A stretch of 64,000 nt of DNA from Escherichia coli (GTDB taxonomy: Bacteria > Pseudomonadota > Gammaproteobacteria > Enterobacterales > Enterobacteriaceae). The notes beneath the pieces were generated by a model. That model saw nothing but the letters and a program-made list of their open reading frames with translations, ran no database searches and had not been told where the DNA came from. Shown piece after piece: positions 3,499 to 30,399 of this stretch. The stretch lies in NCBI RefSeq assembly GCF_017348835.2, contig NZ_CP071375.1; one strand, written 5' to 3'. The stretch's first letter is position 1. Each line of letters opens with the position of its first letter. Position numbers and translations under genes: made by a program.

Positions 3499-4221
3499 TT
3501 AAAACGGAAAATGAATCAGCTCAACGTCATCCGCCGTGACTTTCACCATCGAACCTTCCGTATGCCAGGCACCCAGTACCACGCGTAAAGCAGGTTGCTG
3601 GTTGGCGATAAGTTCATGTACCGCCGGGCGATGGGTATGCCCGTGAATCAGCCATTGCACCTGATGTTTTTCCATCGCACTGACCACCGCGTTTTGGTTA
3701 ACGTCCATGATCGCCAGCGATTTACTGCTGTTGGCTTCTTTACTGTTCGCGCGCATTCGCGCGGCAATGCGTTTGCGCACAAACAACGGCAGAGCGAGGA
3801 ATAGCGTTTGCAGCCAGGGTTTGTGGACTTTGGCGCGAAAAGCCTGATAACCCGCGTCATCGGTGCACAGCGTGTCGCCATGCATAATCAACACCCGACG
3901 ACCATAAAGTTCGAGCACCTTTTCTTCCGGCAATAACGTCATGCCGCTTTCACGGGCAAAGCGTTTGCCGAGCAGAAAATCACGGTTGCCATGAATGAAA
4001 TAACAGGGAACGCCGGAATCGGACACCGCTTTGATCGCTGCCGCCATCTGGCGATGGAGTGGGTTGGGATCGTCGTCGCCAATCCACGCTTCAAACAGAT
4101 CGCCAAGAATATACAGCGCGTCGGCATTGCGGGCTTCCCCCGCTAAAAAACGCAGAAAACCGGCGGTGATCGCCGGTTCTTCCACGCAGAGATGAAGATC
4201 TGCAATAAAGAGTGTCGCCAC
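3499..4221 (-). CDS. lpxH: UDP-2,3-diacylglucosamine pyrophosphatase
   Basis: 240-aa calcineurin-like phosphoesterase (DLHL, GDLFE, GNRD, HGHTH motifs). Confidence 0.9.
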
Positions 4222-15102: not shown

Positions 15103-16265
15103 TTACGCCTTCTTTATATCCTCCATAATTCCACAGTGGGACATATTTGGGACATGATCACCAAAAATGTCGTCTATTTTCCTTGCATGCTCTGTCAAAT
15201 GATTAGGCGCAAGGTGAGCATACCTACGAACCATTTCTATGGACTCCCATCCGCCCATTTCCTGAAGCACAGATAATGGGACGCCTGACTGGATCAGCCA
15301 GCTTGCCCAGGTGTGTCTGAGGTCATGGAAACGGAAATCTTCAATTCCTGCACGACGACAAGCTGATAGCCATGATGTCTTGCTGTCGATGCGCATCTTC
15401 CTGACCGCAGGCGTTGATGTTCCATCTGCTCGCTTAGCCGCCTTGGTATGTACAAACACCCATTTGTGATGCTTGCCTATTTGATCACGCAACACTTTAC
15501 AGGCGGTATCGTTCAGCGCCACACCAATGGCGCGGTTTGATTTGCTCTCTTCTGGATTCACCCAGGCAACTCGTCGCTGCATGTCGATTTGTTGCCATTC
15601 CAGATTTATGATGTTCGACTTTCTCAGACCAGTTGCCAGCGCAAACTTGACGACAGATTTCAGTGGTTCGGGGCACTCATCAATAAGGCGTTTTGCTTCC
15701 TCCTTTTCCAGCCATCTGACTCGCTTGTTTCTGACCGCTGGTATCTTGATGACAGGCGCTTTTTCCAGCCACTTCCAGTCGCGTTCTGCAGCACGGAGAA
15801 TGGCCTTTATCATGGCAAGATGCTTTGCCTTTGTCTGAGTTGATACTGGCTTTGGTTCATAAACAGGCGGTTCTTTACCTTTCCTGATGGCGGCCTGAAC
15901 TTTCTGTTTCCATATTTCTTTCGTCTTTCTGTTATGCATTCTGCTTACAGCAGAGTAAATCTTTGCCTCCGAGATATCTTTAAGCCTTATACCCTCAAAA
16001 TGTTCAAGCCAGAACTCAATCCGGCTTTTATCTGAATCGAGAGATTTTTATCAGCTTTTTCCTCAAGCCATCTTAGGCAGGCCTCTTCAAAAGTGACATC
16101 AGGTAAATCCCCTAGCTTTTCTACTCGCCAGAGTTCTGCTTTTCGCTTGTCGTGCAACTCCTGAGCTTGCCGCTTGTCCTTTGTGCCAAGAGATTCCTTA
16201 ATTCGTTTCCCGCCCGGGAGCGAATACGAGGCATACCATATTTCATTTCTGCGGAAGAGTGACAT
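15103..16265 (-). pseudogene. int: tyrosine integrase disrupted by a 1-nt frameshift
   Basis: N-terminal ORF (16265 to 15987) and catalytic C-terminal ORF (15939 to 15103, with R..HxxR..Y motifs) are in different frames; C-terminal frame is open upstream to a TAA at 16048-16050; frames meet at T5 homopolymer 16045-16049. Confidence 0.8.
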
Positions 16266-16492
16266 TTTCTTTCCTCTGTTATGCCATCACCCGCGCTCAC
16301 CTGGACAGTATGCAGCGGAGACTGAAGCGCCGCAATGCAAGCTTGCCGTGTTGTGAGGTAAGGAGATTTTGGCTTGGTTGGATCTTTACGTGTTGCCTGT
16401 AGGCGGCCTGTTCGTATCCAGTTGGTGGCGGTTGGTCTGGATATCTTAAGAAACTGACAGGCCTCATCGAGTGTGAGGCTGTATGGCTCCAT
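16121..16492 (-). CDS. xis: excisionase-like HTH protein (AlpA/Xis family)
   Basis: Starts [31 protein letters not shown] (HTH); stop of upstream gene overlaps its ATG; 3' end overlaps the int start; true length uncertain. Confidence 0.5.
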
Positions 16493-16797
16493 TATTTCAC
16501 CTCTTGCTGTGTCATTGTTGAAAAATGGATACCAGCTCGTTGCTGCCAGACGATCCAACCGAGAGTCATATCCCATGCCATGTATTCGTTATCGCCGTTT
16601 TTTGCTCTCCGACGATCTACTAAGTCACCGAAACGCTTTTCCATGAATAATTCATAGGCTTCGCGTTCATCTGGCTCTACTTCCAGAGATACGAGTGCGA
16701 TTTCATAAGCACGGCGCTCAATATCGTCTCGAACCTCTAGGCTGCTGATTCGTTCTTTGATTTCTTTAATCAGTTCTTTATTGGTAAATGTGGTCAT
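16492..16797 (-). CDS. prophage protein, YfdT-like
   Basis: 101-aa ORF, translationally coupled in the leftward early operon; size and order match CPS-53 yfdT as recalled. Confidence 0.55.
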   Translation of the reverse strand: MTTFTNKELIKEIKERISSLEVRDDIERRAYEIALVSLEVEPDEREAYELFMEKRFGDLVDRRRAKNGDNEYMAWDMTLGWIVWQQRAGIHFSTMTQQEVK

Positions 16798-17159
16798 TAT
16801 GCTCCAGCCTCCGGTGCTTTTGGCATTACTGCCCAGTGAGTGATATTGACGTTTTCAAGGTCCCCGACCTGAAATGTCCACTGCCATTCTCCGGTTTCTT
16901 TTTGTCCCCAGTTGTACCAGAGAGAACGCCAGCCAATCAGCCAGCCTTCTCCATTAGCATCAAATAACAGAACACTTTCATTTGCTGGTGGCAGTTCAGC
17001 TGACACTGGTATTATTTTGTTTTCCAGTGCCGCACATTTAGCTTCAAGCGCGTCGAATTTACGTAACAGGTACTCAGCATTTGTTTCGTTCACTTTCAGA
17101 TCTCGCGGTACACATTTCCCGCGAAGAAACCCTTCCATTTCGAAAACATTCATGCGCAT
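16797..17159 (-). CDS. prophage protein, YfdS-like
   Basis: 120-aa ORF with Trp-rich C-terminus; ATGA overlap with neighbours. Confidence 0.55.
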   Translation of the reverse strand: MRMNVFEMEGFLRGKCVPRDLKVNETNAEYLLRKFDALEAKCAALENKIIPVSAELPPANESVLLFDANGEGWLIGWRSLWYNWGQKETGEWQWTFQVGDLENVNITHWAVMPKAPEAGA

Positions 17160-17686
17160 TTGCGTAACTCCGATAAATCGTTAAAACGTTCCATAAACAT
17201 CCCGTAGGCATGACCCGGTGCCAGTGGAATCACGTTGAACATCTCTGTTGCCGGGATGCCTTCCAGTACAGGCCAGAAAGAGCCATCATCAAGCCCGAGA
17301 TCGCGGCGTTCGGTTGCCAGCATGATGAGATCGGCATATTTCACGGGTGTACTCATAACTAGGGGTAACCCGTATTTCTCACGGATTACGGCGTCTATTT
17401 TTTCTTCCATTTGTTTATAGTCAGGAAGAAGGCGTTTCAGTGGTGCGGGAATGTCCTGGCAATACGCTTCTGTTGCATCATGCATTAACGCTTCAAAAGC
17501 AAATTCCTGCGGCACCAGCTGGCTGCAAAGAACCGCATGTTGGGCGACGCTGTAGAAGTGCGAAAGATGACCGGCAAAGCGACAGATATTTGAAAGGGAA
17601 ACCGCGATATCGTTAATATCGATGTCGTCTTTATTTATCTTGTCATAATAAAAATGCTTCCCGGAAAAAGTTTTAATAAATGACAT
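17150..17686 (-). CDS. HD-domain phosphohydrolase, YfdR-like 5'-deoxynucleotidase
   Basis: 178-aa product from ATG 17684-17686; HD-domain motifs (H..HD.E.Y..D). Confidence 0.7.
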   Translation of the reverse strand: MSFIKTFSGKHFYYDKINKDDIDINDIAVSLSNICRFAGHLSHFYSVAQHAVLCSQLVPQEFAFEALMHDATEAYCQDIPAPLKRLLPDYKQMEEKIDAVIREKYGLPLVMSTPVKYADLIMLATERRDLGLDDGSFWPVLEGIPATEMFNVIPLAPGHAYGMFMERFNDLSELRKCA

Positions 17687-17813
17687 TTTGTTCTCCACGT
17701 ATATGCACTGCACCGCGCTGAATTCTGGTAAAAGGAAGCCCTCACCATCCGGTGATTATTGAGTTAATTACGTTTCCATAAATGCCCCCGCAGGGGCATT
17801 TGCAGTAATGAAA

Positions 17814-18638
17814 TCAGGCGGTGAAAGTACCAATAAAGGTTTCTACTTTGCTGTCTTTGAATTTCTCAACAAGCAGATCACGAAATTCGTTAGCCATTTC
17901 TTCCTGCACCGCTTCCAGCTGAATAATGCGCAGAACCAGTACAGGACGATCGCCAGTGATAATGCTGAGGCGTAATTTAAACGGACGTTCTTTCAGGCCT
18001 TCAAACGGAACGCATTTAAATTCAAATGCCACTGGCATAATGTCTTTGGTCTTCGCTTCGACAGACTCCATCAGGGAGCGTTTGCCGCTGAAGTCATTAT
18101 CTTCAAAATCAGCGGTCTGGTTTGCTTCAATCGTGATTTTACGGACTGCCGCAGCCGCTTTTGTTGCCTGAATGGCGTCACCATTAGCATCAAAGCCCAC
18201 AAGGTAGTCGGCCCAGTCTTCGATCCATTCTGCCAGTGACTTCTGGGAGTTACGCTCGCCGTTAACAGACAACAGAGCAGAGAACGGTGCTGTCTTTTTC
18301 AGTTTGAGAGTGGCAGTGTTATCTGCGTGACCTGGCTCATCAATAGTACCCAGGTTAAGCACACTGACGGCACGCATATTATCGGCATCGATAAAGCAGC
18401 GGGTGCCTTCATCTGCAAGATCTTTAGAATAACGGGTAAAATCATCGATGCAGGCAGTGGAAAGTGCACCACGGAAACGGAAGCGATTTAAATTAAATTT
18501 TTCCAGATCATGAATGCGGAAATTCTCAGGCAATGCCACAGCATCGGCACCAATCTTACTGATAATTTCATTAACACCCTGAGCAGAAATAAGGGCATGG
18601 ATTTGATTAATTGCAGTTGCGTCTAAGTTCTGAGACAT
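17814..18638 (-). CDS. DUF2303-family prophage protein (YfdQ-like)
   Basis: 274-aa ORF; size and position match CPS-53 yfdQ as recalled. Confidence 0.6.
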
Positions 18639-18703
18639 AATAAGTCCTCACTATATAAAGATATTCAGTGATGAGATAAATAATCAGTTTATTACGAACG
18701 ATA

Positions 18704-19066
18704 TTAACGACCTGCTGCGCGGAGTTTTCCGTCAGGTTCACCGGCAAGAGTCAGTAATTGTCCCTGGTCTTCCTGCAGAATAGTCAGGCGACCACCGCGA
18801 TTGACATACATCGGCGTTTCGGTGGTGTCTTCTTCGGAAATTTTCCCGCGGTTAGTCGGGCGAATATATGAGAGTTTGTGTTTGATTTTCACACGGTTCT
18901 CATCAAATGGTTCGATTTCCAGGTTGAGTGAGACCTTACCTTTGGTTTTCGTGTTCATCACACCGGAAGCGACTTCACTGAGAACTGCGCCGATTTTGGT
19001 TTCAAATACGCCGCCGTCCAGCTCCCCGATAAATGCCTGCACATCAGTACTGCGTTCGCTAGCCAT
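18704..19066 (-). CDS. prophage protein, YfdP-like
   Basis: 120-aa product from ATG 19064-19066 (MASERSTDVQAFIGELDGG...); first gene of the leftward operon. Confidence 0.55.
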   Translation of the reverse strand: MASERSTDVQAFIGELDGGVFETKIGAVLSEVASGVMNTKTKGKVSLNLEIEPFDENRVKIKHKLSYIRPTNRGKISEEDTTETPMYVNRGGRLTILQEDQGQLLTLAGEPDGKLRAAGR

Positions 19067-19114
19067 TTTGCTGCTCCTCATCATATCGACCCTGCAAGGC
19101 CGATTAGTTTCTCC

Positions 19115-19247
19115 ACAAAACAGAGAAGAACACCTGTGGTGGCCGCCGCCCGGATGGATTGGGTTATGAGCCCGTCGTCCGGTGATGCTCTTCTCTGTTT
19201 TGTAAAAAGGACGGTACCAGCCGGAAGCAAGGGTACAAGCTGGTACC
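19115..19247. promoter_or_regulatory. structured leader: 15-bp perfect inverted repeat plus leftward hairpin/U-tract
   Basis: acaaaacagagaaga (19115-19129) and its exact reverse complement (19189-19203) with 59-nt spacer; stem ggtaccagc/gctggtacc (19213-19247) followed on the minus strand by TTTTT (19204-19208). Confidence 0.4.
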
Positions 19248-19468
19248 GCCAGGACTACACACAGCATAAAGTTGTGGTGCCGGGTGCCCTCCCGGTGCCT
19301 GGCGAAGGTTGCACACCAGGCGGGTGGGTATCCACAGAAGGTCGACTGTCAGCCTCAACCTTAACCCGCGTGCGCTGAGCCGCATTCACCACAACGCTAA
19401 GGATTCTCTCTGGTTGAAAATACTTAGCTGTTATGTGCCTGCTTTTAGCCACATCAGGCGAGGTGGAC

Positions 19469-19522
19469 CTGGTTATTCCCCAACAACAAGGATTCGGTTA
19501 ATCTGGATATCCCCAACAACAA
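19469..19522 (+). repeat. two tandem ~20-nt direct repeats just upstream of the 19537 ORF
   Basis: ctggttattccccaacaacaa (19469-19489) and ctggatatccccaacaacaa (19503-19522), period about 33 nt. Confidence 0.6.
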
Positions 19523-19536
19523 TAAGAGTATTCAAT

Positions 19537-20052
19537 GTGATCGCTGAATTAACGGCAGCAATGACGGCTATTCGTGAAACAGCCCAGATTGCAAAACTAA
19601 TGAACGAGGCAAAAACTCAAGCTGAAGTAAATGCGGCTATTGGTGAGCTGAACTCAAAGCTTGCGTCTATTCAGCGCGAATGCGTGTCTCTCGTTGAACT
19701 GGTGGGCTCTTATCAAGAAATAAATGCTTCTCTCAAAGCTAAAATTGCAGAATTCGAAAACTTTGAGGCTCAGACGGAAGGCTATATCCTTAACCAACTT
19801 GAGTCGGGTACTTTTGTATACTCGAAGGAGGTAATCGTGAACGGTGGCAGCATAACCATGCATCTTTGCCCAAAATGTTTTGGACAAAAGATAGTATCGA
19901 TACTTCAACCATTCCCGGTTAGCGAAGATGAGCTTTTTCATAAAAGCAGGTGCCTCCACTGTGAAAATAAGTTTCTGATGAATAAAAATCCGGATTACGT
20001 ATCGCCTCCATCCATTGAGGAGTTGTCCAGAAAACTTAACGGCAATCTGTAG
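19537..20052 (+). CDS. hypothetical protein: N-terminal coiled-coil, C-terminal CxxC...CxxC zinc ribbon
   Basis: ORF frame open from 19309; plausible starts GTG 19537 or ATG 19561; heptad-like N-terminus (IAKLMNEAKTQAEVNAAIGELNSKLASIQREC), C-terminal HLCPKCFGQK...SRCLHCENKF; own hairpin terminator downstream. Confidence 0.6.
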   Translation: MIAELTAAMTAIRETAQIAKLMNEAKTQAEVNAAIGELNSKLASIQRECVSLVELVGSYQEINASLKAKIAEFENFEAQTEGYILNQLESGTFVYSKEVIVNGGSITMHLCPKCFGQKIVSILQPFPVSEDELFHKSRCLHCENKFLMNKNPDYVSPPSIEELSRKLNGNL

Positions 20053-20090
20053 ATTACTACTGTTGTGGATATCCAGATTGTTAAAGAGCT

Positions 20091-20114
20091 AAGCGTCCTG
20101 TAGGGCGCTTTTTT
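20091..20114 (+). terminator. rho-independent terminator of the 19537-20052 gene
   Basis: Stem aagcgtcc/gggcgctt with tgta loop, then T6. Confidence 0.6.
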
Positions 20115-20280
20115 GTTGCTAACGAATCATCCTGGACTTCATATGCCCCAGGCGGCTACTTCGTGGGCGTCCTGCCTGTTCGTTTTTGACATTTACTGAC
20201 TGCTTACGACACATGCACCGTGTTGCAACCAGATTTTGTTGTAATCCTGTAGTTGGTCTGGAACAAAAGATAAAATTAAA

Positions 20281-20317
20281 TTGCGAGATATGCAAGCGAT
20301 ATTTGCGAGGTATGCAA
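20281..20317. promoter_or_regulatory. OL-like operator pair with candidate leftward promoter
   Basis: 15-mers TTGCGAGATATGCAA (20281-20295) and TTGCGAGGTATGCAA (20303-20317) share TTGC-N7-GCAA with sites in the cI-cro intergenic region; minus strand carries TTGCAT / 17 nt / TATCTT. Confidence 0.5.
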
Positions 20318-20330
20318 ATTTATAGGTAGT

Positions 20331-20351
20331 AAAAAGCCACCTTTCGGTGGC
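20331..20351 (-). terminator. rho-independent terminator after the cI-like gene
   Basis: Hairpin gccacc-tttc-ggtggc (20336-20351) followed on the minus strand by TTTTT (20331-20335). Confidence 0.6.
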
Positions 20352-20371
20352 CGATGGATGGGATATTGAGG

Positions 20372-21064
20372 TTAATTATGTCTCTTAAGGGTTTGCGACT
20401 GACTGATTAAGACCTTTCCAAAGACCATGAATCGGTGTTCGTTTTCGCTAGTAATTCCCCATTCACGGTAAATCTGGTTATCAGAAATCACCAGCAGTTT
20501 GTCAGGAATCATTTGAAGTCTTTTAACGTATATTTTGTCATCAAAACCAAAGACATATATACCATCACCATCAAACTGATTGATGCTGACATCAACGAAG
20601 ATGAGATCTCCTGGCTCAATGGTTGGACACATACTGTCCCCACGAACGTTGATAACTTTGATGTGATTGGCTGGTCGTCCGCCGAACATTGATACAGCAT
20701 TATCAGTTCTGTATTCGATGGCATGAATCACATCAATGACATCACCGCCCTGGATAAGGCCATTTCCCGCACTGGCACTGATATCCAGCATTTCAATACG
20801 GAACACATCCTTCACCTGCGCAACATCCTCATTATTACTGTTTTTATATACAGTATTACTTTTGTGGGCAGAGGTAAAGAGATCAGCAATATCAACACCT
20901 AAGCTCTTGGCAATATTACTCAGTGTTTGTTCGGTAAATTGTTTTTGCTTACCCGTTTCTAAGCGCGAGATGTTCGCCGCATCTACTCCTATTGCTTCAG
21001 CGAGATCGGCGATTTTCATGTTCTTCGCTTGGCGAAGTTGTCTGACTCGGTTTCCTATGTTCAT
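20372..21064 (-). CDS. cI: CI-like phage repressor (HTH_XRE plus S24 LexA-like peptidase domain)
   Basis: 230-aa; N-terminal HTH (RVRQLRQAKNMKIADLAEAIGVDAANISRLETGK), C-terminal GDSM serine and VKR lysine; divergent from a cro-like gene. Confidence 0.85.
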   Translation of the reverse strand: MNIGNRVRQLRQAKNMKIADLAEAIGVDAANISRLETGKQKQFTEQTLSNIAKSLGVDIADLFTSAHKSNTVYKNSNNEDVAQVKDVFRIEMLDISASAGNGLIQGGDVIDVIHAIEYRTDNAVSMFGGRPANHIKVINVRGDSMCPTIEPGDLIFVDVSINQFDGDGIYVFGFDDKIYVKRLQMIPDKLLVISDNQIYREWGITSENEHRFMVFGKVLISQSQTLKRHN

Positions 21065-21161
21065 GCGTTTATTACATTTCTTTATTGCGTGATAAGCAAA
21101 TCAACTTGCGCAAAATAATTGCGTGAAATAACATGCATAACGCGCAATATTTGGAGGGCAT
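21065..21161. promoter_or_regulatory. OR-like operator/promoter region between cI and cro
   Basis: Repeated TTGCG/CGCAA half-sites; 15-mers TTGCGTGATAAGCAA (21085-21099) and ATGCATAACGCGCAA (21133-21147); RBS ggaggg before cro. Confidence 0.55.
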
Positions 21162-21422
21162 ATGCAATCACCATTACGAAATGTGCGTAAGGCGCATGGT
21201 TTCACTTTGCAGCATGTTGCTGCGGGTGTTCAAGTCAATCCAGCGACGTTGAGTCGTATTGAGAGGCTGGAGCAGATTCCATCTATCGAGCTTGCAGAAC
21301 GTTTAGCCAATTTTTTTAAGGGTGAAGTCAGCGAAATGCAGATTCTTTATCCGGCACGTTTTCAATCTAGCCAAAACCAGAATGGGTTTAAACCACAGGA
21401 ACAGGAGGTGAACCGTGGGTAA
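21162..21422 (+). CDS. cro: Cro-like HTH regulator
   Basis: 86-aa HTH_XRE protein (FTLQHVAAGVQVNPATLSRIER) divergent from cI. Confidence 0.75.
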   Translation: MQSPLRNVRKAHGFTLQHVAAGVQVNPATLSRIERLEQIPSIELAERLANFFKGEVSEMQILYPARFQSSQNQNGFKPQEQEVNRG

Positions 21423-21966
21423 GCATCACTGGAAAGTAGAAAAACAGCCTGAGTGTTACGTGAAAGCTGTCAGAAAAACTATCGCAGCGTTGCCGGGGGG
21501 GTACGCTGAAGCTGCTGACTGGCTGGATGTAACAGAGAACGCATTATTTAACCGCCTTCGTGCCGATGGCGATCAGATTTTCCCGCTGGGATGGGCAATG
21601 ATTTTGCAACGTGCTGGTGGAACTCACTTCATTGCTGACGCTGTGGCGCAGTCTGCAAATGGCGTCTTTGTGTCTCTTCCTGATGTCGAGGATGTGGACA
21701 ACGCCGATATCAACCAACGCCTGCTGGAAGTCATTGAACAGATCGGCAGTTATTCAAAACAGATTCGTTCAGCAATTGAAGACGGTGTAGTGGAACCGCA
21801 TGAGAAGACAGCAATTAACGATGAGCTGTACCTCTCAATTTCGAAGCTGCAGGAGCATGCAGCACTGGTCTACAAAATCTTTTGCGTTTCAGAAAGTAGT
21901 GACGCCCGCGAGTGTGCAGCTCCGGGCGCCGTGGCGTGTCGTGACTGTGGAGAAACTAACGCATGA
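21415..21966 (+). CDS. phage regulatory protein, possibly CII (CP76)-like
   Basis: 183-aa ORF directly after cro with overlapping start; family assignment from position and recalled similarity only. Confidence 0.4.
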
Positions 21967-22301
21967 ACAGTTTAACAACACACTACCGTCGCTCGCAACT
22001 GATTGCGCTTCCTGTACCGGGTGGAAAAGCGAAGGTGGAGTATTGCTATGCAGTAAATGTACCAGGTGACAGGGAAATTGTAACCCACAGCTTTGCAGAG
22101 TGGGCTGTGGGTGATTTCAACCGGCAGAAGGAGACAGTCCTTTGCGACAAGTTAACCGCTGGTTCAAAGATCACTACGGAGTGCCCGTCAGAGTCATTCG
22201 TTGGGAGCCGGAAACACAACGGGTTATCTACCTCCGTGAAGGCTATGAGCATGAGTGCTTCAGCCCGCTCGAACAGTTTCGTCGTAAATTCAGGGAAATA
22301 G
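21963..22301 (+). CDS. hypothetical ORF in a region with three overlapping protein-like frames
   Basis: ATGA coupling to upstream gene; C-terminal half looks non-coding while frame +2 carries protein-like sequence with no ATG; see findings. Confidence 0.3.
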
Positions 22302-22310
22302 AGGTCGGTC

Positions 22311-23252
22311 ATGAGCACTAAATTAACCGGCTATGTATGGGATGGTTGCGCTGCGTCAGGCATGAAATTATCCAGCGTGGCAATTATGGCCCGCCTGGCT
22401 GATTTCAGTAATGACGAAGGTGTGTGCTGGCCATCAATTGAAACCATTGCCCGTCAGATTGGCGCGGGGATGAGTACCGTCAGAACGGCTATCGCACGGC
22501 TGGAAGCAGAAGGCTGGTTAACGCGTAAGGCGCGTCGCCAGGGTAACCGCAATGCGTCGAATGTTTATCAGCTTAACGTTGCGAAGCTTCAGGCAGCGGC
22601 ATTTTCTCAACTGTCAGATTCTGACCCGTCAAAATCTGACGCATCAAAATCTGACCCGTCAAAATTTGATGCGTCGAAATCTGGCAAAAAAGCGGGTTTT
22701 CACCCGTCAGAATCTGGCGGGGATCCGTCAGTAAAATCAAAACATGATCCGTCAGATAAAAAAACTTCTCGTCCGGACGCTTCGCAACCGGACACGCAGA
22801 AGGCTGAACAGGAGTTTTTAACTCGCCATCCTGATGCGGTTGTATTCAGCCCTAAAAAGCGCCAGTGGGGAACGCAGGATGATTTGACCTGCGCACAGTG
22901 GCTCTGGAAAAAAATCATCGCCCTGTACGAGCAGGCCGCCGAATGTGACGGCGAGGTGGTTCGTCCCAAAGAACCGAACTGGACAGCCTGGGCAAACGAA
23001 ATTCGCCTGATGTGTGTGCAGGATGGTCGTACTCACAAACAAATCTGCGAGATGTACAGCCGCGTCAGCCGCGATCCGTTCTGGTGCCGTAACGTGCTCA
23101 GCCCGTCGAAGCTGCGGGAAAAATGGGATGAGCTTTCCCTGCGCTTATCGCCGTCCGTCAGCACGTACACCGAAAAACGCGAAGACCCGTACTTCAAAGC
23201 CAGTTACGACAACGTGGACTACAGCCAGATCCCGGCAGGATTCAGGGGGTGA
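22311..23252 (+). CDS. phage replication initiator (O-like, N-terminal HTH)
   Basis: 313-aa; N-terminal winged-helix/HTH_36-like region (MSTVRTAIARLEAEGWL), internal iteron-encoded linker; follows cro/cII. Confidence 0.7.
   Translation: MSTKLTGYVWDGCAASGMKLSSVAIMARLADFSNDEGVCWPSIETIARQIGAGMSTVRTAIARLEAEGWLTRKARRQGNRNASNVYQLNVAKLQAAAFSQLSDSDPSKSDASKSDPSKFDASKSGKKAGFHPSESGGDPSVKSKHDPSDKKTSRPDASQPDTQKAEQEFLTRHPDAVVFSPKKRQWGTQDDLTCAQWLWKKIIALYEQAAECDGEVVRPKEPNWTAWANEIRLMCVQDGRTHKQICEMYSRVSRDPFWCRNVLSPSKLREKWDELSLRLSPSVSTYTEKREDPYFKASYDNVDYSQIPAGFRG
22606..22760. repeat. iteron-like direct repeats inside the replication gene (candidate ori)
   Basis: Four tandem 15-nt units tgacccgtcaaaatc / tgacgcatcaaaatc / tgacccgtcaaaatt / tgatgcgtcgaaatc (22622-22681), then degenerate ccgtcag units and an A-rich tract. 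Confidence 0.5.
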
Positions 23253-23743
23253 TCATGAGTCTTTTGAATGACGTTCAGAAATTCATTGAAGCCCATCCGG
23301 GCTGTACTTCCGGAGACATTGCGGATGCTTTTGCAGGTTACTCACGGCAGCGCGTTCTGCAGTCAGCAAGCAAGTTACGTCAGAGTGGGCGTGTGGCTCA
23401 CCGTTGTGAAGGAGATACACACAGACATTTCCCGCGCCTGACTGAGAGAGCGCAGGATCCGGAACCACAACCAGTTCGTGAAACCAGACCTGTGCGCAAT
23501 TTCTATGTCGGCACTAACGACCCGCGGGTGATTTTGTGCCTGACCCGCCAGGCGGAAGAACTGGAGTCCAGGGGCTTATACCGTCGTGCTGCAACGGTGT
23601 GGATGGCGGCATTCCGTGAAAGCCACTCCCAGCAAGAGCGAAACAATTTTCTTGCGCGTCGTGAGCGGTGTTTACGGAAAAGCAGCAAGCGCGCTGTATC
23701 GGGTGAAGAGTGGTATCTGTCAGGGAATTACGTGGGGGCTTAA
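23249..23743 (+). CDS. hypothetical prophage protein with PerC-like motif
   Basis: 164-aa ORF, ATGA-coupled to the replication gene; segment EELESRGLYRRAATVWMAAF resembles PerC-family activators (recalled). Confidence 0.4.
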   Translation: MIMSLLNDVQKFIEAHPGCTSGDIADAFAGYSRQRVLQSASKLRQSGRVAHRCEGDTHRHFPRLTERAQDPEPQPVRETRPVRNFYVGTNDPRVILCLTRQAEELESRGLYRRAATVWMAAFRESHSQQERNNFLARRERCLRKSSKRAVSGEEWYLSGNYVGA

Positions 23744-24069
23744 TGACGACGTTAACTCAATGCCAGCAGCAGGTGCTGGATATGCTGATTTCTTACCAGA
23801 AAGAACGTGGCTTCCCGCCAACCAATCAGGAGGTGGCTACCATGCTGGGATACCGTTCAGTGAATGCAGCGGTGGAGCATCTTCGCGCACTGGAGAAAAA
23901 AGGCGTCATCACGATAAAGCGTGGCGTGGCCCGGGGCATCACGCTTCATACCGCGGTGAAGGACGACGACAGCGAGGTGGCCGGGATTATCCGCGCACTG
24001 CTTGCTGGTGAGGAAAACGCCAGGCTGCGTGCAACCCACTGGTTACATGAGAGGGGCCTGAAAGTATGA
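23743..24069 (+). CDS. LexA N-terminal DNA-binding-domain-like protein (no peptidase domain)
   Basis: 108-aa product from ATG 23743; winged-helix similarity to LexA DBD (LTQCQQQVLDMLISYQKERGFPPTNQEVATMLGYRSVNAAVEHLRALEKKGVI). Confidence 0.55.
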   Translation: MTTLTQCQQQVLDMLISYQKERGFPPTNQEVATMLGYRSVNAAVEHLRALEKKGVITIKRGVARGITLHTAVKDDDSEVAGIIRALLAGEENARLRATHWLHERGLKV

Positions 24070-24455
24070 AGCTGATCCTGCCTTTTCCGCCCAGCGTGAA
24101 CACGTACTGGCGACACCCCAACAAAGGGGCGTTTGCTGGTAAGAGCCTGATAAGCGCGGCGGGGCGAAAATTCCAGAGCGCGGCGTGCGCAGCAATAGTT
24201 GAGCAGTTACGTCGTCTGCCGAAACCAACGTCGGCACCTGCTTCAGTGGAGATCGTGTTGTTTCCTCCGGATAACAGGATCCGCGATCTGGACAACTATA
24301 ACAAGGCGCTGTTTGACGCCCTGACCCACGCGGGGGTGTGGGAAGACGACAGTCAGGTGAAAAGAATGCTGGTGGAGTGGGGACCGGTTATCCCGGAAGG
24401 GAAGGTCGAGATCACTATCAGTAAGTACGAGAAAACGGCGGGTGCAGCTGCCTGA
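24066..24455 (+). CDS. rusA: RusA-family Holliday junction resolvase
   Basis: 129-aa; RusA motifs including DLDN and acidic catalytic residues. Confidence 0.8.
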   Translation: MKLILPFPPSVNTYWRHPNKGAFAGKSLISAAGRKFQSAACAAIVEQLRRLPKPTSAPASVEIVLFPPDNRIRDLDNYNKALFDALTHAGVWEDDSQVKRMLVEWGPVIPEGKVEITISKYEKTAGAAA

Positions 24456-24474
24456 TCAAGAGGAGAAACGAAGT

Positions 24475-25284
24475 ATGAATAATCTGATGGTCATTGATGG
24501 TATTGAAGTTCGTCGTGATGCTTATGGGCGTTACAGCCTGAACGATCTGCATCGCGCAGCAGTAGCATCTGGTGCAAATGCCAGAACCAAGGAGCCAGGA
24601 AAGTTTCTTTCCAGCCAACAAACTGTTGAGCTTGTTCATGAATTAACCAACACCCAGAATTTGGGTGTTGACCCGGTGAGTGTGATTCATGGGGGAAATG
24701 AACGGGGAACGTATGTCTGTAAGGAACTGGTGTATGCCTATGCAATGTGGATCAGCCCGTCATTCCATCTGAAGGTGATCCGTACTTTCGATATGGTAAC
24801 CAGCGCGCCGGAAAAGTTATCCGGACAGGTTGCTGACAAGATGCAGGCTGGCGTGATTCTGCTGGACTTTATGCGCCGGGAGTTAAATCTGTCTAACTCA
24901 TCTGTGCTTGGGGCCTGTCAGAAACTCCAGGAGGCTGTTGGCTTACCGAATCTGGCACCGCGCTATGCCATTGATGCACCTGCTGACGCGCCTGATGGCT
25001 CAAGCCGCCCGACGCTGTCGCTGAGTGCACTGCTGAAGCAGTATGGTATCCGCCTGACGGCTAATCAGGCATATCACCAGATGGCGAAGCTGGGGATCGT
25101 TGAACAACGCGAACGATACAGCCGTACCGCGATTAACAACATCAAAAAATTCTGGTCGCTGACAGCGAAAGGTTGCATGTTCGGCAAGAACATCACCAGT
25201 CCCGCAAATCCGCGCGAGACGCAGCCGCATTTCTTCGAATCCCGATTCCCTGAGCTGTTAAAGCTGCTCGATACCGTTCATTGA
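24475..25284 (+). CDS. KilA-N domain protein (antirepressor-like)
   Basis: 269-aa from ATG 24475 with RBS aggag; N-terminal KilA-N/APSES-like domain. Confidence 0.65.
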   Translation: MNNLMVIDGIEVRRDAYGRYSLNDLHRAAVASGANARTKEPGKFLSSQQTVELVHELTNTQNLGVDPVSVIHGGNERGTYVCKELVYAYAMWISPSFHLKVIRTFDMVTSAPEKLSGQVADKMQAGVILLDFMRRELNLSNSSVLGACQKLQEAVGLPNLAPRYAIDAPADAPDGSSRPTLSLSALLKQYGIRLTANQAYHQMAKLGIVEQRERYSRTAINNIKKFWSLTAKGCMFGKNITSPANPRETQPHFFESRFPELLKLLDTVH

Positions 25285-25285
25285 G

Positions 25286-26281
25286 GTGAACGTGAGAGCG
25301 CTACTGACCCCCGAGATTGCCCCGCGTATGGGGATCGTATTGTTCAGACCCGGTTCAGAGCTGATGCCCCTGTTTATGCAGGGGCGTGTCCTGCTGGAGC
25401 CTGAGCCGGAACGTTATTCATCTTTTGCCAGTGGTGCCGTTCCGGCTGCATCACAACCGCTGGCGGATGATCCTGCCGTTCGGGCCGTGTTCCGCAATGA
25501 GGCAGTGATCCGTCGTGCTGGTGGCGTGGAATGTCTTGAAAGCTGGTTACTTCGTGAAAAAGGCTGCCAGTGGCCTCATTCCGACTGGCACAGCGAGAAC
25601 ATGACCACAATGCGACACGCGCCGGGCGCAATCCGTCTGTGCTGGCACTGCGATAACCAACTGCGCGATCAGTTCACGGAACGGCTGGAATCAATGGCAA
25701 CGGATAACTGTGCCCGCTGGGTGTTGTCTGTTGTGCGTCGGGATCTCGGTTTTGATGACAGTCACGTTGTGACAATGCCGGAACTGTGCTGGTGGCTGAT
25801 TCGTAATGATCTGGCGGATACCTTACCGGAAAGTGCAGCCCGTAAGGCACTGAGATTACCGAAGCCTTTTGTGCCGTCTGTCACCCGGGAAAGTGACCTG
25901 GTGCCTTCGGTTCCTGCCACCAGCATCATCCAGAATAAAGCGAAAAAGGTGCTGGCGCTGAAAGTGGATCCGGAGTCGCCGGACTCTTTTATGTTACGCC
26001 CAAAACGTCGCCGCTGGGTTAATGAAAAGTACACGCGATGGGTTAAGACGCAGCCGTGCGCATGTTGTGGAAAACCTGCTGATGATCCCCACCACCTGAT
26101 AGGCCACGGTCAGGGTGGAATGGGGACAAAAGCGCATGACCTCTTTGTGTTGCCTTTGTGCAGAAAGCATCACGACGAGCTGCATGCGGATACTGTGGCA
26201 TTCGAAGAGAAGTATGGCTCCCAGCTGGAGCTGATATTTCGTTTTATCGATCGTGCGCTGGCGATTGGTGTGCTGGCCTGA
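25286..26281 (+). CDS. DUF968-like prophage protein with C-terminal Cys/His (HNH-like) cluster
   Basis: 331-aa; C-terminus [18 protein letters not shown]...CRKHHDELH. Confidence 0.55.
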
Positions 26282-26298
26282 TTTTGTGGAGAAAGTTG

Positions 26299-26682
26299 AT
26301 GCGTGATATTCAGATGGTTCTTGAGCGTTGGGGAGCGTGGGCGGCTAATAATCATGAAGATGTGACTTGGTCGTCCATTGCCGCCGGTTTTAAGGGATTA
26401 ATTCCTTCAAAAGTAAAATCTCGCCCACAATGTTGTGACGATGACGCGATGATCATTTGCGGGTGCATGGCCCGTCTGAAAAAGAACAACAGCGACTTGC
26501 ACGATTTATTAGTAGATTATTATGTAGTCGGTATGACATTCATGTCACTGGCAGGTAAGCATTGCTGCTCTGATGGTTATATCGGGAAAAGGTTACAGAA
26601 GGCTGAGGGCATAATTGAAGGGATGTTAATGGCATTAGATATCCGGTTAGAGATGGATATCGTTGTTAATAACTCTAATTAA
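26299..26682 (+). CDS. quuD: late-gene antiterminator Q (DLP12 quuD-like)
   Basis: 127-aa product from ATG 26299 ([22 protein letters not shown]...); position before the lysis cassette. Confidence 0.75.
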
Positions 26683-26715
26683 TATGCCAATTGTTTACTA
26701 AAAATTATTAAAAAT

Positions 26716-26733
26716 GGGGCGTTGCAACGCCCC
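26716..26733. terminator. 18-bp perfect palindrome hairpin between Q and nmpC
   Basis: ggggcgttg/caacgcccc; T-rich tract on the minus-strand side. Confidence 0.4.
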
Positions 26734-26829
26734 CAAAAATAAAGGGTAATATATAACAGAAGGTTTATATAGTTAGAAGCAAGGTTGTGCTCCTAAAGGA
26801 AGTGGCTTGAGGGAGCCACTTATATGTTG

Positions 26830-26860
26830 GGGAGGCAAAGCCTCCCGCAACATATCTTTT
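26830..26860 (+). terminator. candidate tR'-like terminator downstream of Q
   Basis: Stem ggaggc/gcctcc (26830-26846) followed by TTTT at 26857-26860. Confidence 0.35.
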
Positions 26861-26870
26861 AGTAATCAAA

Positions 26871-27953
26871 TTAGAACTGGTAAACCATACCTACAGCAAC
26901 GATATCATCGGTAGCAACGCCAGATGCTTTCGTGAAATCGCTCTTATCAATCAGGTTGATTTTGTAATCAACAAAAGTGGACATATTTTTGTTGAAGTAA
27001 TAGGTTGCACCTACATCAATATATTCAACCAGGTCCTGATCACCCCACGCACCCAAGTCTTTTCCTTTAGATTGCAGGTAAGCAACGGACGGACGCAGAC
27101 CGAAGTCGAACTGATATTGTGCAACTACTTCGAAGTTTTGTGCTTTGTTGGCAATATGGTTATTACCAAAAACAGTCATGTTCTGGGTTTCAGAATAGGT
27201 GGTAGCCAGATAGATGTTGTTCGCATCATATTTCAGACCAGCTGCCCATACTTCAGCATTTTGACCAGATGCATTCAGGCTGTTGTTACCGTAGATAACC
27301 TGATTATTAGTGCGGTCAGATTTAGCATAGGTTGCACCTACACCGAATCCTTCATACTCATACGTAGTGGAGAAACCGAAACCATCACCATTAGCTTCAG
27401 TTACGTCAGTGCGGTCATTTTTACCCTGATACTGAGCAGCAAAGTTCAGACCATCAACCAGACCAAAGAAGTCGTTGTTACGATAAGTTGCAACACCAGT
27501 GGTGCGACCAGTCATGAACACATCTGTTTGGGTCCAGGTATCGCCACCGAATTCTGGCAGAACGTCAGTCCACGCACCGATGTCATATGCTACACCGTAG
27601 TTACGGCCGTAATCGATTGAGCCGTAGTCCCCGAATTTCAGGCCTGCAAATGCAAGACGGGTTTTGTCTTTGGAGGAGCCTTGAGATTCAGCGCGGTTGC
27701 CTTTGAATTCATATTCCCACTGACCGAAACCAGTCAGTTGATCGTTGATTTGGGTTTCACCTTTGAAGCCAAGACGGGCATAAGTAGTATCACCATCATC
27801 TGCATCATTAGAGGAGAAGTAGTGCTTGGCATTAACTTTCCCATATAGATCCAGCTTGTTACTGTCTTTATTATAAATTTCAGCTGCCTGAGCAGACATC
27901 GCCATCAGTACTGATGCGGCTACAGCAGAAATTGCCACTGTTAATTTTTTCAT
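26871..27953 (-). CDS. nmpC: outer membrane general porin (NmpC/OmpD-like), intact
   Basis: 360-aa 16-strand porin with signal peptide and C-terminal ...VGMVYQF. Confidence 0.9.
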
Positions 27954-28541
27954 CGTGAGCCCTTTTTTTTGAACTATTATTAAAAAATGATGTCACTGCG
28001 CGATAAATATTCATCTAATCAATGTGATTATTTCAAGATGTAAGTTTTAGTTTCTCATTTAATTTGTGAGGTAGATCTCTATTTTTATCTGAACTTTTTC
28101 TATCGAAACCTATTTATGGCTCTTATTTGAACAAAAATAAACCTATTAGCTAATTTATATTAATGGCTGTTATTTATGGAGGTTCTATAATTCGGCGGTT
28201 TAATTTAAATCAACTAAAAATAACGGCGGAAATTATTTGTAGGATATTTGTTGAGGTTTTCTTATGTATTTGTGGTGGTGTTTTGAACACTCGGTAGCAT
28301 TCTCATAAATATCATTCAGTGGTTTACGTACGTAAAAAATTGGTTATGCTGTTAAGAGTGGTTACTTCGTCACACAGCTTAAACCCGCCGTCGAGCTGGT
28401 TTTTCCATTTTTTGAGTCTCGATATTAGCTGATAACTCAATACCTGAGTTATTCACTGACTCCGAGTCTGTTACGTTTCTGCTTTTTTGCGATACGTTGT
28501 ATTCCCTCAATTTACACCCGCTTTGTCTGCGAGGTGGGGTT

Positions 28542-28757
28542 ATGAAATCCATGGATAAGTTAACAACGGGTGTCGCCTATGGCACCTCAGCAGGTAGTGC
28601 CGGTTACTGGTTTTTACAGCTGCTCGATAAAGTTACGCCCTCACAGTGGGCAGCAATAGGTGTGCTGGGTAGCCTGGTATTTGGCCTGCTGACGTACCTG
28701 ACAAACCTTTATTTCAAGATTAAAGAAGATAAGCGCAAGGCTGCGAGAGGTGAATAA
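28542..28757 (+). CDS. essD: pinholin (phage 21 S-like) with dual start
   Basis: 71-aa with MKSMDK dual-start motif (ATG 28542 and 28551), RBS gaggtgggg, two TM segments. Confidence 0.85.
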
Positions 28758-29254
28758 TGCCTCCATCATTACGAAAAGCCGTTGCTGCTGCTATTGGTGG
28801 CGGAGCAATTGCTATAGCATCAGTGTTAATCACTGGCCCAAGTGGTAACGATGGTCTGGAAGGTGTCAGCTACATACCATACAAAGATATTGTTGGTGTA
28901 TGGACTGTATGTCACGGGCATACAGGAAAAGACATCATGCTCGGTAAAACGTATACCAAAGCAGAATGCAAAGCACTCTTGAATAAAGACCTTGCCACTG
29001 TCGCCAGACAAATTAACCCGTACATCGAAGTCGATATACCGGAAACAACGCGCGGCGCTCTTTACTCATTCGTTTACAACGTGGGTGCTGGCAATTTCAG
29101 AACATCGACGCTTCTTCGCAAAATAAACCAGGGCGATATCAAAGGCGCATGTGATCAGCTACGTCGCTGGACATACGCTGGCGGTAAGCAATGGAAAGGC
29201 CTGATGACTCGCCGTGAGATTGAGCGTGAAATCTGTTTGTGGGGTCAGCAATGA
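28757..29254 (+). CDS. rrrD: SAR endolysin (lysozyme)
   Basis: 165-aa; N-terminal signal-anchor-release segment, T4-lysozyme-like catalytic region. Confidence 0.85.
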
Positions 29255-29712
29255 ACAGAGTAACCGCGATTATCTCCGCTCTGGTTATCTGCATCATCGT
29301 CTGCCTGTCATGGGCTGTTAATCATTACCGTGATAACGCCATTACCTACAAAGCCCAGCGCGACAAAAATGCCAGAGAACTGAAGCTGGCGAACGCCACC
29401 ATTACTGACATGCAGCAGCGCCAGCGTGATGTTGCTGCACTGGATGAAAAATACACGAAGGAGTTAGCTAATGCGAAAGCTGAAAATGATGCTCTGCGTG
29501 ATGATGTTGCCGCTGGTCGTCGTCGGTTGCACATCAAAGCAGTCTGTCAGTCAGTGCGTGAAGCCACCACCGCCTCCGGCGTGGATAATGCAGCCTCCCC
29601 CCGACTGGCAGACACCGCTGAACGGGATTATTTCACCCTCAGAGAGAGGCTGATCACTATGCAAAAACAACTGGAAGGAACCCAGAAGTATATTAATGAG
29701 CAGTGCAGATAG
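29251..29712 (+). CDS. rzpD: spanin inner-membrane subunit (Rz)
   Basis: 153-aa from ATG 29251 overlapping the endolysin stop; N-terminal TM plus coiled-coil. Confidence 0.8.
29471..29653 (+). CDS. rzoD: spanin outer-membrane lipoprotein (Rz1) embedded in Rz in +1 frame
   Basis: 60-aa with lipobox (LVVVGC) and Pro-rich segment, wholly inside Rz. Confidence 0.75.
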
Positions 29713-29743
29713 AGCTGCCCATATCGATGGGCAACTCATGCAA

Positions 29744-30037
29744 TTATTGTGAGCAATACACACGCGCTTCCAGCGGAGTATAAATGCCTAAAGTAATAAA
29801 ACCGAGCAATCCATTTACGAATGTTTGCTGGGTTTCTGTTTTAACAACATTTTCTGCGCCGCCACAAATTTTGGCTGCATCAACAGTTTTCTCCTGTCCA
29901 ATTCCCGAAACGAAGAAGTGATGGGTGATGGTTTCCTTTGGTGTTACTGCTGTCGGTTTGTTTCCAACAGTAAACGTCTGTTGAGCACATCCTGTAATAA
30001 GCATTGCCAGAGCGGCAGAAAACAACATTTTTTTCAT
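29744..30037 (-). CDS. bor: Bor lipoprotein
   Basis: 97-aa from ATG 30035-30037 (MKKMLFSAALAMLITGC lipobox). Confidence 0.85.
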   Translation of the reverse strand: MKKMLFSAALAMLITGCAQQTFTVGNKPTAVTPKETITHHFFVSGIGQEKTVDAAKICGGAENVVKTETQQTFVNGLLGFITLGIYTPLEARVYCSQ

Positions 30038-30399
30038 CTTATTATCCTGCATTGTTAAAAACGGCAGAATCCTATGTGACAACAATTAAACGATAATTAA
30101 ATGGATTGATGAAAATTAAAACTATATAGGTGTACGCTCAGACTATTGGAGGAAGTTGGGGACACTCAGAATCCTGTGGAATGAAATAAACCGGTCTATC
30201 CGTCTATTACCCTTTTAGCTGCGCTGTATCGTCGCCGTATTCCCGCATTAACCATGACCGTAGCCCGACGGGGAATTCCTTCTGCGTGAGTGTGCGGGAA
30301 TAATCAAAAACGATGCACACCGGGTTTTACTGTGCTGACAGACGCAGGGTTACCCTCATAGTCGCTTTTCCGGTGCGATGGTGGAAGAAACCGGGATGT

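Follow-up and report, generated by a model that had tools for sequence, protein, structure and literature searches.

A probable lambda-type replication origin inside the initiator gene of an SfII/SfIV-type Escherichia coli prophage, and a DnaT-type initiator tail that tracks the helicase loader

Introduction

The DNA analyzed here, referred to as the window, is a stretch of 64,000 nucleotides from the Escherichia coli chromosome (contig NZ_CP071375.1) that contains a lambdoid prophage. The 313-codon gene of the prophage replication initiator very probably contains the origin at which this initiator acts. The placement of an origin within the gene of its own initiator, as in bacteriophage λ, is textbook knowledge. 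What the analysis adds is a rule linking the extreme C-terminus of such initiators, their tail, to the type of helicase loader encoded beside them, and the implication of this rule for the primosomal protein DnaT. The window's initiator carries a DnaT-type tail and no loader gene accompanies it. We read the locus, with a probability of about 0.6, as the λ-type origin and initiator of an SfII/SfIV-type lambdoid prophage, in which the initiator recruits a DnaC-type loader, here the one of the host. The step from the tail to DnaC, or to DnaC together with DnaB, is the less certain part of this reading and is given slightly less than an even chance. In the phage records and papers examined, the origin is not annotated and the missing loader is not discussed.

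The initiator and its tail

The initiator matches phrog_391, “replication initiation O-like”, over its full length (residues 1–313, E 1.7e-135); its identity to gp41 of Shigella phage SfIV is 99.7%, and to the product of the SfII gene 98.7%. The gene itself is already known and common; its family counts 2370 homologues at E ≤ 1e-5 and is present on more than 580 viral contigs. It is named “helix-turn-helix domain-containing protein” in RefSeq and “replication protein O” or “primosomal protein” in phage records. A search for relatives with a diverse alignment gave only sequences at least 98% identical, and the diversity considered below was obtained from searches of encoding contigs and from DNA-pattern scans.

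The N-terminal part contains HTH_36 (Pfam, residues 23–70, with additional GntR and MarR hits) and was modelled by AlphaFold2 as four helices followed by two strands, with a predicted local distance difference test score (pLDDT) of 72–89. Foldseek matches this part of the model to MarR/ArsR-type winged helices only. The winged helix is the presumed reader of the iterons described below. Pfam detects no Phage_rep_O in the initiator, and in BLASTP the N-terminal domain has no similarity to λ O. Residues ~167–277, on the other hand, are homologous to the C-terminal domain of λ O (BLASTP E 1e-25, 30% identity over 216 residues), and the C-terminal domain is similarly related to phi80 gp15 (E 2e-25, 35% identity); tblastn with the initiator also hits the O genes of λ and 933W. 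In λ, the C-terminal domain of O is the part that works with P. The model is disordered at residues 103–159 (pLDDT <50), in the linker joining the winged helix to the helical C-terminal domain, and again at residues 283–313. No solved structure matching the C-terminal domain was found by phmmer against PDB sequences or by Foldseek of the model. The signals for a DnaD-like replisome organiser or loader adaptor, defined by a DnaD N-terminal winged helix and a DnaD/DnaB_2 C-terminal domain, are mixed: among PHROG profiles, 2514 (“DnaD-like helicase loader”) matches at E 2.9e-29 and 4880 (“replisome organizer”) matches the C-terminal domain at E 5.7e-12; DnaD_N of Pfam reaches only E 0.005, and tblastn gives 40–46% identity over 58–88 residues to Bacillus phage organisers.

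The initiator ends …DYSQIPAGFRG (in longer forms VDYSQIPAGFRG and ASYDNVDYSQIPAGFRG), and many of its close relatives end ISEPDTEIPPGFRG. The C-terminus of E. coli DnaT ends …VSEPDSQIPPGFRG (at other lengths EPDSQIPPGFRG and NTVSEPDSQIPPGFRG), and the motif SEPDxxIPxGFRG is essentially invariant in DnaT orthologues. Profile–profile comparison (hhalign) of the initiator C-terminal domain and tail with DnaT aligns the tail only (last 17 columns, E 7e-5), and Pfam finds no PF17948, the three-helix C-terminal domain of DnaT that binds single-stranded DNA (ssDNA), in the initiator. Homology of the O-type, type B, and type C C-terminal domains to the DnaT domain was considered and rejected, as hhalign aligned only the tail for the O-type and gave nothing significant for phiNP and SfV. 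The likeness of the tail to DnaT presumably explains the name “primosomal protein I” in phage records. A literature search for the tail motif, PPGFRG or PAGFRG, gave no relevant paper.

The tail and the helicase loader

Initiators of the same family with other tails end …NTDWIYG…, as λ O does, or …DWNxxxGWExxL. Since the cores of the C-terminal domain are 66–78% identical among relatives associated with P, associated with DnaC, or solo, it is the tail and not the core that tracks the loader. When the members of the family were taken one at a time, tails of the W-type were followed by a Phage_lambda_P gene in 6/6 (λ, P0045, P0100, P0113, P0067, and P0065), and tails of the GFR-type in 0/9 lineages, eight of which have no loader and one (P0102) a DnaC paralogue (Fisher p 2e-4).

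The same split is seen on a larger scale. The first scan, an unbiased IUPAC pattern scan of IMG/VR for open reading frames ending in D..IP[PA]GFRG, gave 120 loci. Their proteins fall into 31 clusters and combine C-terminal domains of the O-type, type B, type C, the DnaT-type, and others with N-terminal domains of at least three types. Within 1.5 kb on the 3′ side, P was found at 0/97, a DnaC-like gene at 58/97, and no loader at 39/97. The second scan, for IMG/VR open reading frames containing NTDWIYG (120 loci), found P on the 3′ side in 95/97 and a DnaC-like gene in none; both exceptions without P are unrelated proteins. The DnaT-type tail occurs on at least five unrelated types of C-terminal domain (O-like, B, C, DnaT-like, and one further), and a single 80%-identity cluster holds members both with and without a DnaC paralogue. 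Fourteen viral proteins possess the complete DnaT C-terminal domain together with the tail (hmmsearch E 1e-26 to 1e-40). Such proteins in IMG/VR (L127, L123, L131, L117, L150, and others) are 264–350 residues long; their N-terminal domains are DUF1376-like (MAALPYMQLYIADYL…) or of other kinds, and a DnaC paralogue comes after several of them.

The DnaC-like protein encoded next to the phage initiators is 47% identical to E. coli DnaC over the full length. In the host, dnaT lies immediately upstream of dnaC, which is the gene order of the phage modules. The viral proteins with a complete DnaT C-terminal domain suggest a shared ancestry of dnaT–dnaC and the phage initiator–loader cassettes.

Absence of a phage-encoded loader

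The window itself contains no homologue of P, DnaC, or DnaB detectable by tblastn (best E 0.046), in agreement with the claim of an earlier note, made from the sequence alone, that no helicase-loader gene follows the initiator. Neither tblastn (best E 0.12) nor the annotation revealed one in the complete SfIV genome, and tblastn of 80 IMG/VR contigs with an initiator at least 98% identical (883 kb in total) revealed no loader or helicase. The queries were E. coli DnaC, λ P, two other P proteins, phi80 gp14, a phage DnaC paralogue, and the DnaC and DnaB of phiP27. SfIV was induced by ultraviolet light, forms plaques, and was propagated lytically (PMC3851460). The 195-bp origin stretch of SfIV is 100% identical to that of the window. 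Because a plaque-forming phage shares this stretch and has no loader gene, the module evidently functions without a phage loader.

The next genes, identified in the earlier note as PerC-like, LexA-DNA-binding-domain-like, and RusA, are indeed of these kinds, and none of them resembles P, DnaC, or DnaB. The first of them deserves consideration, since it might be proposed that the PerC-family protein, translationally coupled like λ P, is an unrecognised helicase loader or adaptor. The gene occupies the position of P and overlaps the initiator stop codon, it is present in 79/80 of the near-identical viral contigs, and in SfV, mEp460, cdtI, and Stx2c phages it accompanies the final 76 nt of the initiator gene. 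However, the protein matches only regulator families of the PerC/ANR type, and seven independent relatives with the same tail (phiNP, Klebsiella phage 1 LV-2017, P0051, P0075, P0092, P0085, and P0094) lack the gene 3′ of the initiator and carry methylases, a ParB-like protein, or small unknown open reading frames instead. With the gene missing from seven related solo modules, the PerC-like protein was rejected as a hidden loader, and we consider this role very improbable.

The iteron array within the initiator gene

The earlier note described four tandem 15-nt units at 22622–22681, with additional degenerate copies. Tandem Repeats Finder agrees and places the array at 22620–22683; with a period of 15 nt it counts 4.3 copies (81% matches), with a period of 30 nt 2.1 copies (88%). 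The repeating element is a 13-bp near-palindrome, of which five copies are followed at a larger step by a sixth (Table 1); a degenerate seventh copy lies at 22736–22748, within the AT-rich tract. Six matches to the iteron with at most two mismatches lie within 106 bp, compared to two in the rest of the 64 kb, and the chance of such clustering, estimated from these counts under a Poisson model, is ~1e-18. The iterons are in frame, lie in the helix-turn-helix replication gene, and encode the linker sequence SDSDPSKSDASKSDPSKFDASKSGKK; the note, too, had seen a repetitive linker encoded there. The six palindromes occupy codons 101–136, between the winged helix and the C-terminal domain.

Phasing at 15 bp is also found in Klebsiella phage 1 LV-2017, phiNP, YeP3, phiP27, and seven genomic homologues, and homologues whose N-terminal domain is as little as 44% identical (phiP27) retain the array together with its phasing and position. 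PhiNP, phiP27, and Klebsiella phage 1 LV-2017 also have the 33-bp step to iteron 6. The bases flanking the iteron core vary with the subtype of the N-terminal domain: GT-CAGAATCTG-AC in the window type, TT..AA in P0100, TC..GA in P0092, and TCAAnnnTTGA in P0102 and P0113. SfV orf39, which has a different N-terminal domain, contains entirely different repeats. In the deposited record of Yersinia phage YeP3 (L006, 3501–4517), the initiator coding sequence begins at 3576. The conserved N-terminus MSVKLSSFVWDGCAAAGM is recovered if an in-frame start at 3501 is used instead, and the annotation therefore probably misses the first 25 codons. The C-terminal domain of this initiator is of type B and bears a long non-GFRG extension, and the gene downstream encodes a 156-residue protein of unknown function.

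A repeat that is in frame and encodes a disordered segment rich in Ser, Asp, and Lys could also be a low-complexity protein linker made by slippage, with the real origin located elsewhere or dependent on host DnaA. The codon usage speaks for DNA. In twelve diverse homologues, the Ser codons of the linker are TCA or TCT in 134/156 cases, compared to 60/254 elsewhere in the same genes (Fisher p 8e-37). Where eight diverged genes encode the same residue, they also use the same codon in a fraction of 0.85 for residues 98–150 and 0.76 for residues 151–172, compared to 0.42 in the N-terminal and 0.50 in the C-terminal domain, which means that synonymous sites are frozen exactly where the protein is least constrained. 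The units are, moreover, palindromic and phased, and they covary with the DNA-binding domain. Given the biased Ser codons, the frozen synonymous sites, and the conservation with covariation, the tests say that the array behaves as a cis-acting DNA element and is not just a repetitive linker. As regards DnaA, whose boxes the earlier note had thought worth looking for nearby, no 9-mer within one mismatch of TTATCCACA was found in 22000–24500, and the two 8/9 matches at 21693 and 21946, more than 650 bp upstream, are at chance level. With no box in or beside the array, a DnaA-dependent origin was rejected, and the explanation of the repeats as a linker only is extremely improbable.

Two motifs similar to iteron half-sites, CCGTCAGA(T/A), 26 bp apart, are located at 22451–22489, in the part of the N-terminal domain that encodes the recognition helix. 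They may be extra weak binding sites, or they may have arisen by chance.

The AT-rich tract and its surroundings

The A-rich tract of the earlier note is real, as 22730–22769 is the most AT-rich 40-mer in 22000–23500 (72% AT). The AT-rich stretch as a whole (22722–22769) is nearly invariant in 12/12 diverse homologues, even in those with different iterons. A 24-bp direct repeat in it, GATCCGTCAG, holds two GATC (Dam) sites, one at 22722 and the other 24 bp further on, at 22746. Both GATC sites are invariant across the family, and among the related loci considered (L004, L005, L006, L011, L013, L098, and L106) many have a gene for a Dam-type methylase right after the initiator or the loader. 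This pattern in the sequences hints at a possible control of the origin by methylation or SeqA. The GC-rich inverted repeat to the right of the tract is conserved in homologues as TGTCCGGACGCTTCGCAACCGGAC, in the part of the linker for which the same-codon fraction is 0.76.

The spacer separating iterons 5 and 6, with its run of A and run of T, is partly conserved in homologues. On the minus strand it contains a small terminator-like hairpin, CGGGTGAAAACCCG, at 22706–22693, followed by a T run. The hairpin could be a bend, a terminator of leftward transcription, or a product of chance. No site resembling a promoter was detected near the origin in a promoter scan.

How the helicase might be loaded

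It is proposed that dimers of the N-terminal winged helix would bind the six 13-bp palindromic iterons within the part of their own gene that encodes the disordered linker, and that, similar to the O-some of λ, the nucleoprotein complex formed in this way would destabilise the candidate unwinding element next to it, the AT-rich tract. The helicase would be delivered by a DnaC-type loader and not by a phage P protein, with the O-type C-terminal domain and its DnaT-type tail bringing in the DnaC-type loader that carries DnaB. As the prophage encodes no loader, the tail would most probably engage the DnaB–DnaC complex of the host, or a host factor that delivers this complex.

Several points weigh against this proposal. 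The DNA of the tail adjoins the downstream gene, so linkage in mosaic exchange contributes to the association of tail and loader; nevertheless, the persistence of the tail on unrelated domains and beside many downstream genes that have nothing in common argues that it has a function. In a crude AlphaFold2 pseudo-complex, DnaC-(G4S)6-last 28 residues of DnaT, modelled as a single chain with monomeric E. coli DnaC and a 112-sequence DnaC-family alignment, the tail was not docked with confidence (pLDDT 51–55 for the tail, >90 for DnaC), and binding to monomeric DnaC thus receives no support from the model. The phiP27 initiator (L17) works with phage-encoded DnaC and DnaB, yet it has no such tail. 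The paper on the preprimosome structure proposes the N-terminal domain of DnaT, and not its tail, as the candidate recruiter of DnaB/DnaC (PMC13377028), the loss of DnaT residues 154–179 mainly weakens ssDNA binding and cooperativity (PMC4132743), and, according to a review, contact between DnaT and DnaC is not documented (PMC5778457). The AT-rich tract is merely 72% AT. In addition, the integrase gene of the prophage is a pseudogene, and therefore this particular copy may never be induced successfully.

Two other roles of the tail have to be considered. First, the tail might dock the initiator on the restart primosome, on PriA and/or PriB, so that the helicase would come through the PriA–PriB–DnaT route at an opened or transcribed origin. 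The acidic stretch of the tail, followed by IPxGF, loosely resembles docking tips of the SSB type. The motif is that of DnaT, a protein that docks on PriA with its C-terminal domain via a hydrophobic interface (PMC13377028). The undocumented DnaT–DnaC contact (PMC5778457) and the lack of docking in the DnaC pseudo-complex also speak for this role. This route, however, leaves unexplained why the tail is often found beside a phage DnaC paralogue and never beside P, and the accessible part of the published account does not place the extreme tail of DnaT in the PriA interface; we regard it as unlikely. Second, the tail might aid ssDNA binding or oligomerisation and thus stabilise the opened AT-rich region, with the helicase recruited by direct contact of the O-type C-terminal domain with DnaB–DnaC or via another host factor. 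It was shown that DnaT 84–153 binds dT30 about twofold weaker and less cooperatively than DnaT 84–179 (PMC4132743), and that ssDNA is coated by filaments of the C-terminal domain of DnaT (PMC13377028). Most of the unrelated C-terminal-domain types that carry the tail are, however, not known ssDNA binders, and the strict exclusion of the tail from P-type modules is what would be expected of a loader-specific contact, which makes an ssDNA-binding aid similarly unlikely. Recruitment of a DnaC-type loader by the tail is thus the reading that we prefer.

Comparison with known systems

The closest known system is ori/O/P of λ. In both, the origin is located inside the initiator gene, between the DNA-binding and the C-terminal domain, with the iterons at codons ~117–145 of λ O; palindromic iterons are followed by an AT-rich tract and then by an inverted repeat, which in λ is the palindrome present at oriλ; and the C-terminal domains of the initiators are homologous. 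The systems differ in the N-terminal domain (HTH_36 in the window, Phage_rep_O in λ), in the iterons (six 13-bp sites with 15-bp phasing, compared to four 18-bp sites 20–24 bp apart), in the tail (…IPAGFRG, compared to …NTDWIYGVDL in λ O), and in the absence of a P gene from the window module. The description of the locus in the earlier note as a λ O-like origin can therefore be kept for the layout of the DNA and for the C-terminal domain, while the N-terminal domain belongs to another family; the comparison with the λ O iterons, also raised there, places both arrays between the domains. Phi80 gp15/gp14 and other lambdoid modules of the O/P type also share the homologous C-terminal domain and the iterons within the gene, but the N-terminal domain and the iterons of phi80 are its own, its tail is …DFNNTDW, and it encodes the P-like gp14.

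SfIV and SfII carry this very gene, and no difference was noted in SfIV. The published description of SfIV assigns orf41–45 to a “replication module”, names no origin, and makes no remark on the missing loader (PMC3851460). SfV orf39 has only the last 76 nt of the gene, that is the tail, and the PerC-like gene in common with the window, and differs in the N-terminal domain, the repeat array, and the type of C-terminal domain. Similar to the window's initiator, E. coli DnaT has [VI]SxPDxxIPxGFRG at its extreme C-terminus, and, as in many phage modules, the gene of the GFRG-ending protein precedes that of a DnaC-type ATPase. The window's initiator has neither the N- nor the C-terminal domain of DnaT, only the tail being alignable, and DnaT acts at forks via PriA and PriB and not at iterons.

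In iteron plasmids (for example pSC101, R6K, RK2, and F), Rep proteins use DnaA, DnaB, and DnaC of the host. The likeness to the window's module consists in a single winged-helix initiator encoded by the element, iterons, an AT-rich region, and reliance on the host helicase and loader. Here, in contrast, the iterons are in coding sequence, there are no DnaA boxes, and the initiator has a λ O-type C-terminal domain. Of the Eru types of replication unit in Stx phages, Eru5, 6, 8, 11, and 13 were observed to have HTH_36 proteins beside cI (PMC8951638), and Eru1–3 carry their own helicases (PMC8044961); the Eru papers are silent on origins, iterons, tails, or loaders for the HTH_36 proteins.

Prophage setting and feature coordinates

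The window is a part of the E. coli chromosome and is 100% identical to strain PE164. The prophage (15103–30040) is inserted at tRNA-Arg, the argU/DLP12 site, and its integrase gene (intD) is frameshifted. It includes a gene for an ompC-like porin (26871–27953) and iss (~29744–30037), and in its early-left region it has the genes of the K-12 prophage CPS-53 (yfdP, Q, R, and T). As a whole it is a mosaic of DLP12-, CPS-53-, and SfIV-like modules and may be unable to excise. Upstream of the initiator gene are a cI-like repressor, a cro-like gene, YmfL (cII-like), and a small DUF4222 open reading frame; downstream follow, in order, the PerC-family, LexA-DNA-binding-domain-like, RusA, KilA-N, DUF968/HNH, and Q genes. 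PF13973 (DUF4222) is also encoded directly 5′ of the initiator in L097, L099, L104, L105, L106, and L013, and it is repeatedly found just in front of HTH_36 initiators, in P-type as well as in solo modules. Two open reading frames overlap in different frames upstream of the initiator, 21963–22301 (phrog_1170; gp40 in SfIV) and 22142–22321. Annotation pipelines differ as to which of them is real, and RefSeq annotates the latter here.

A mosaic junction is located within the initiator gene: only the last 76 nt, encoding the tail, and the PerC-like gene (together 23177–23743) are in common, with 97–99% identity, with SfV, mEp460, cdtI, Ayreon, and Stx2a/Stx2c phages. The initiators of these phages are otherwise unrelated.

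Table 1. Coordinates of the candidate origin, the initiator, and neighbouring genes in the window.
Feature	Position	Strand	Basis or remark
DUF4222 small gene (PF13973)	22142–22321	+	overlaps initiator start
Replication initiator gene, 313 aa	22311–23252	+	PHROG 391, HTH_36, SfIV gp41 identity
N-terminal winged-helix DNA-binding domain, aa 1–98	22311–22604	+	AlphaFold2, Foldseek, Pfam
Iterons 1–5, 13-bp near-palindromes GTCARAATCTGAC	22613–22685		starts 22613, 22628, 22643, 22658, 22673 (15-bp spacing)
Spacer AAAAAGCGGGTTTTCACC between iterons 5 and 6	22686–22705		A run and T run; A6 at 22686–22691; iteron 5 ends in C at 22685
Iteron 6, GTCAGAATCTGGC	22706–22718		33 bp after iteron 5
AT-rich tract, candidate unwinding element	22722–22769		directly right of iterons
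GC-rich inverted repeat GTCCGG-N11-CCGGAC	22771–22793		right of AT-rich tract
λ O-type C-terminal domain, aa 160–280	22788–23150	+	BLASTP, pLDDT ~90
C-terminal tail DNVDYSQIPAGFRG, aa 300–313	23208–23249	+	DnaT-type terminal motif; disordered in AlphaFold2 model
PerC-family gene (yfdN-like)	23249–23743	+	occupies λ P position; not a loader homologue
LexA-DNA-binding-domain-like gene	23743–24069		
RusA gene	24066–24455		

Implications

Prophages of E. coli, Shigella, Salmonella, and Klebsiella very commonly carry the module, among them serotype-converting phages and phages related to Stx phages. For lambdoid phages without P, DnaC, or DnaB, the route of helicase loading has so far not been stated, and a concrete, testable proposal is now available. 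Across hundreds of viral contigs, the last ~14 residues of the initiator predict the type of loader almost perfectly, so the tail rule can serve as a quick annotator's guide to the dependence of a phage on host DnaC.

A wider proposal, which we put forward tentatively and with the odds somewhat against it, is that …IPxGFRG is a portable docking signal for loaders of the DnaC family. Phage initiators of at least five architectures would employ it to call in a DnaC paralogue of their own or else the DnaB–DnaC complex of the host, DnaT would do likewise, with dnaT–dnaC as the cellular counterpart of the phage modules, and NTDWIYG would be the equivalent signal for P. The recruitment of DnaB–DnaC by the DnaT-containing preprimosome is described as unknown in a structural paper from 2026 (PMC13377028), and the phage modules are natural domain swaps that point at the DnaT tail. 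If the proposal is true, the DnaT peptide would be the missing link by which the PriA–PriB–DnaT preprimosome recruits DnaB–DnaC, and the dnaT–dnaC operon would be a domesticated copy, or the source, of the phage cassette consisting of an initiator C-terminus and a loader.

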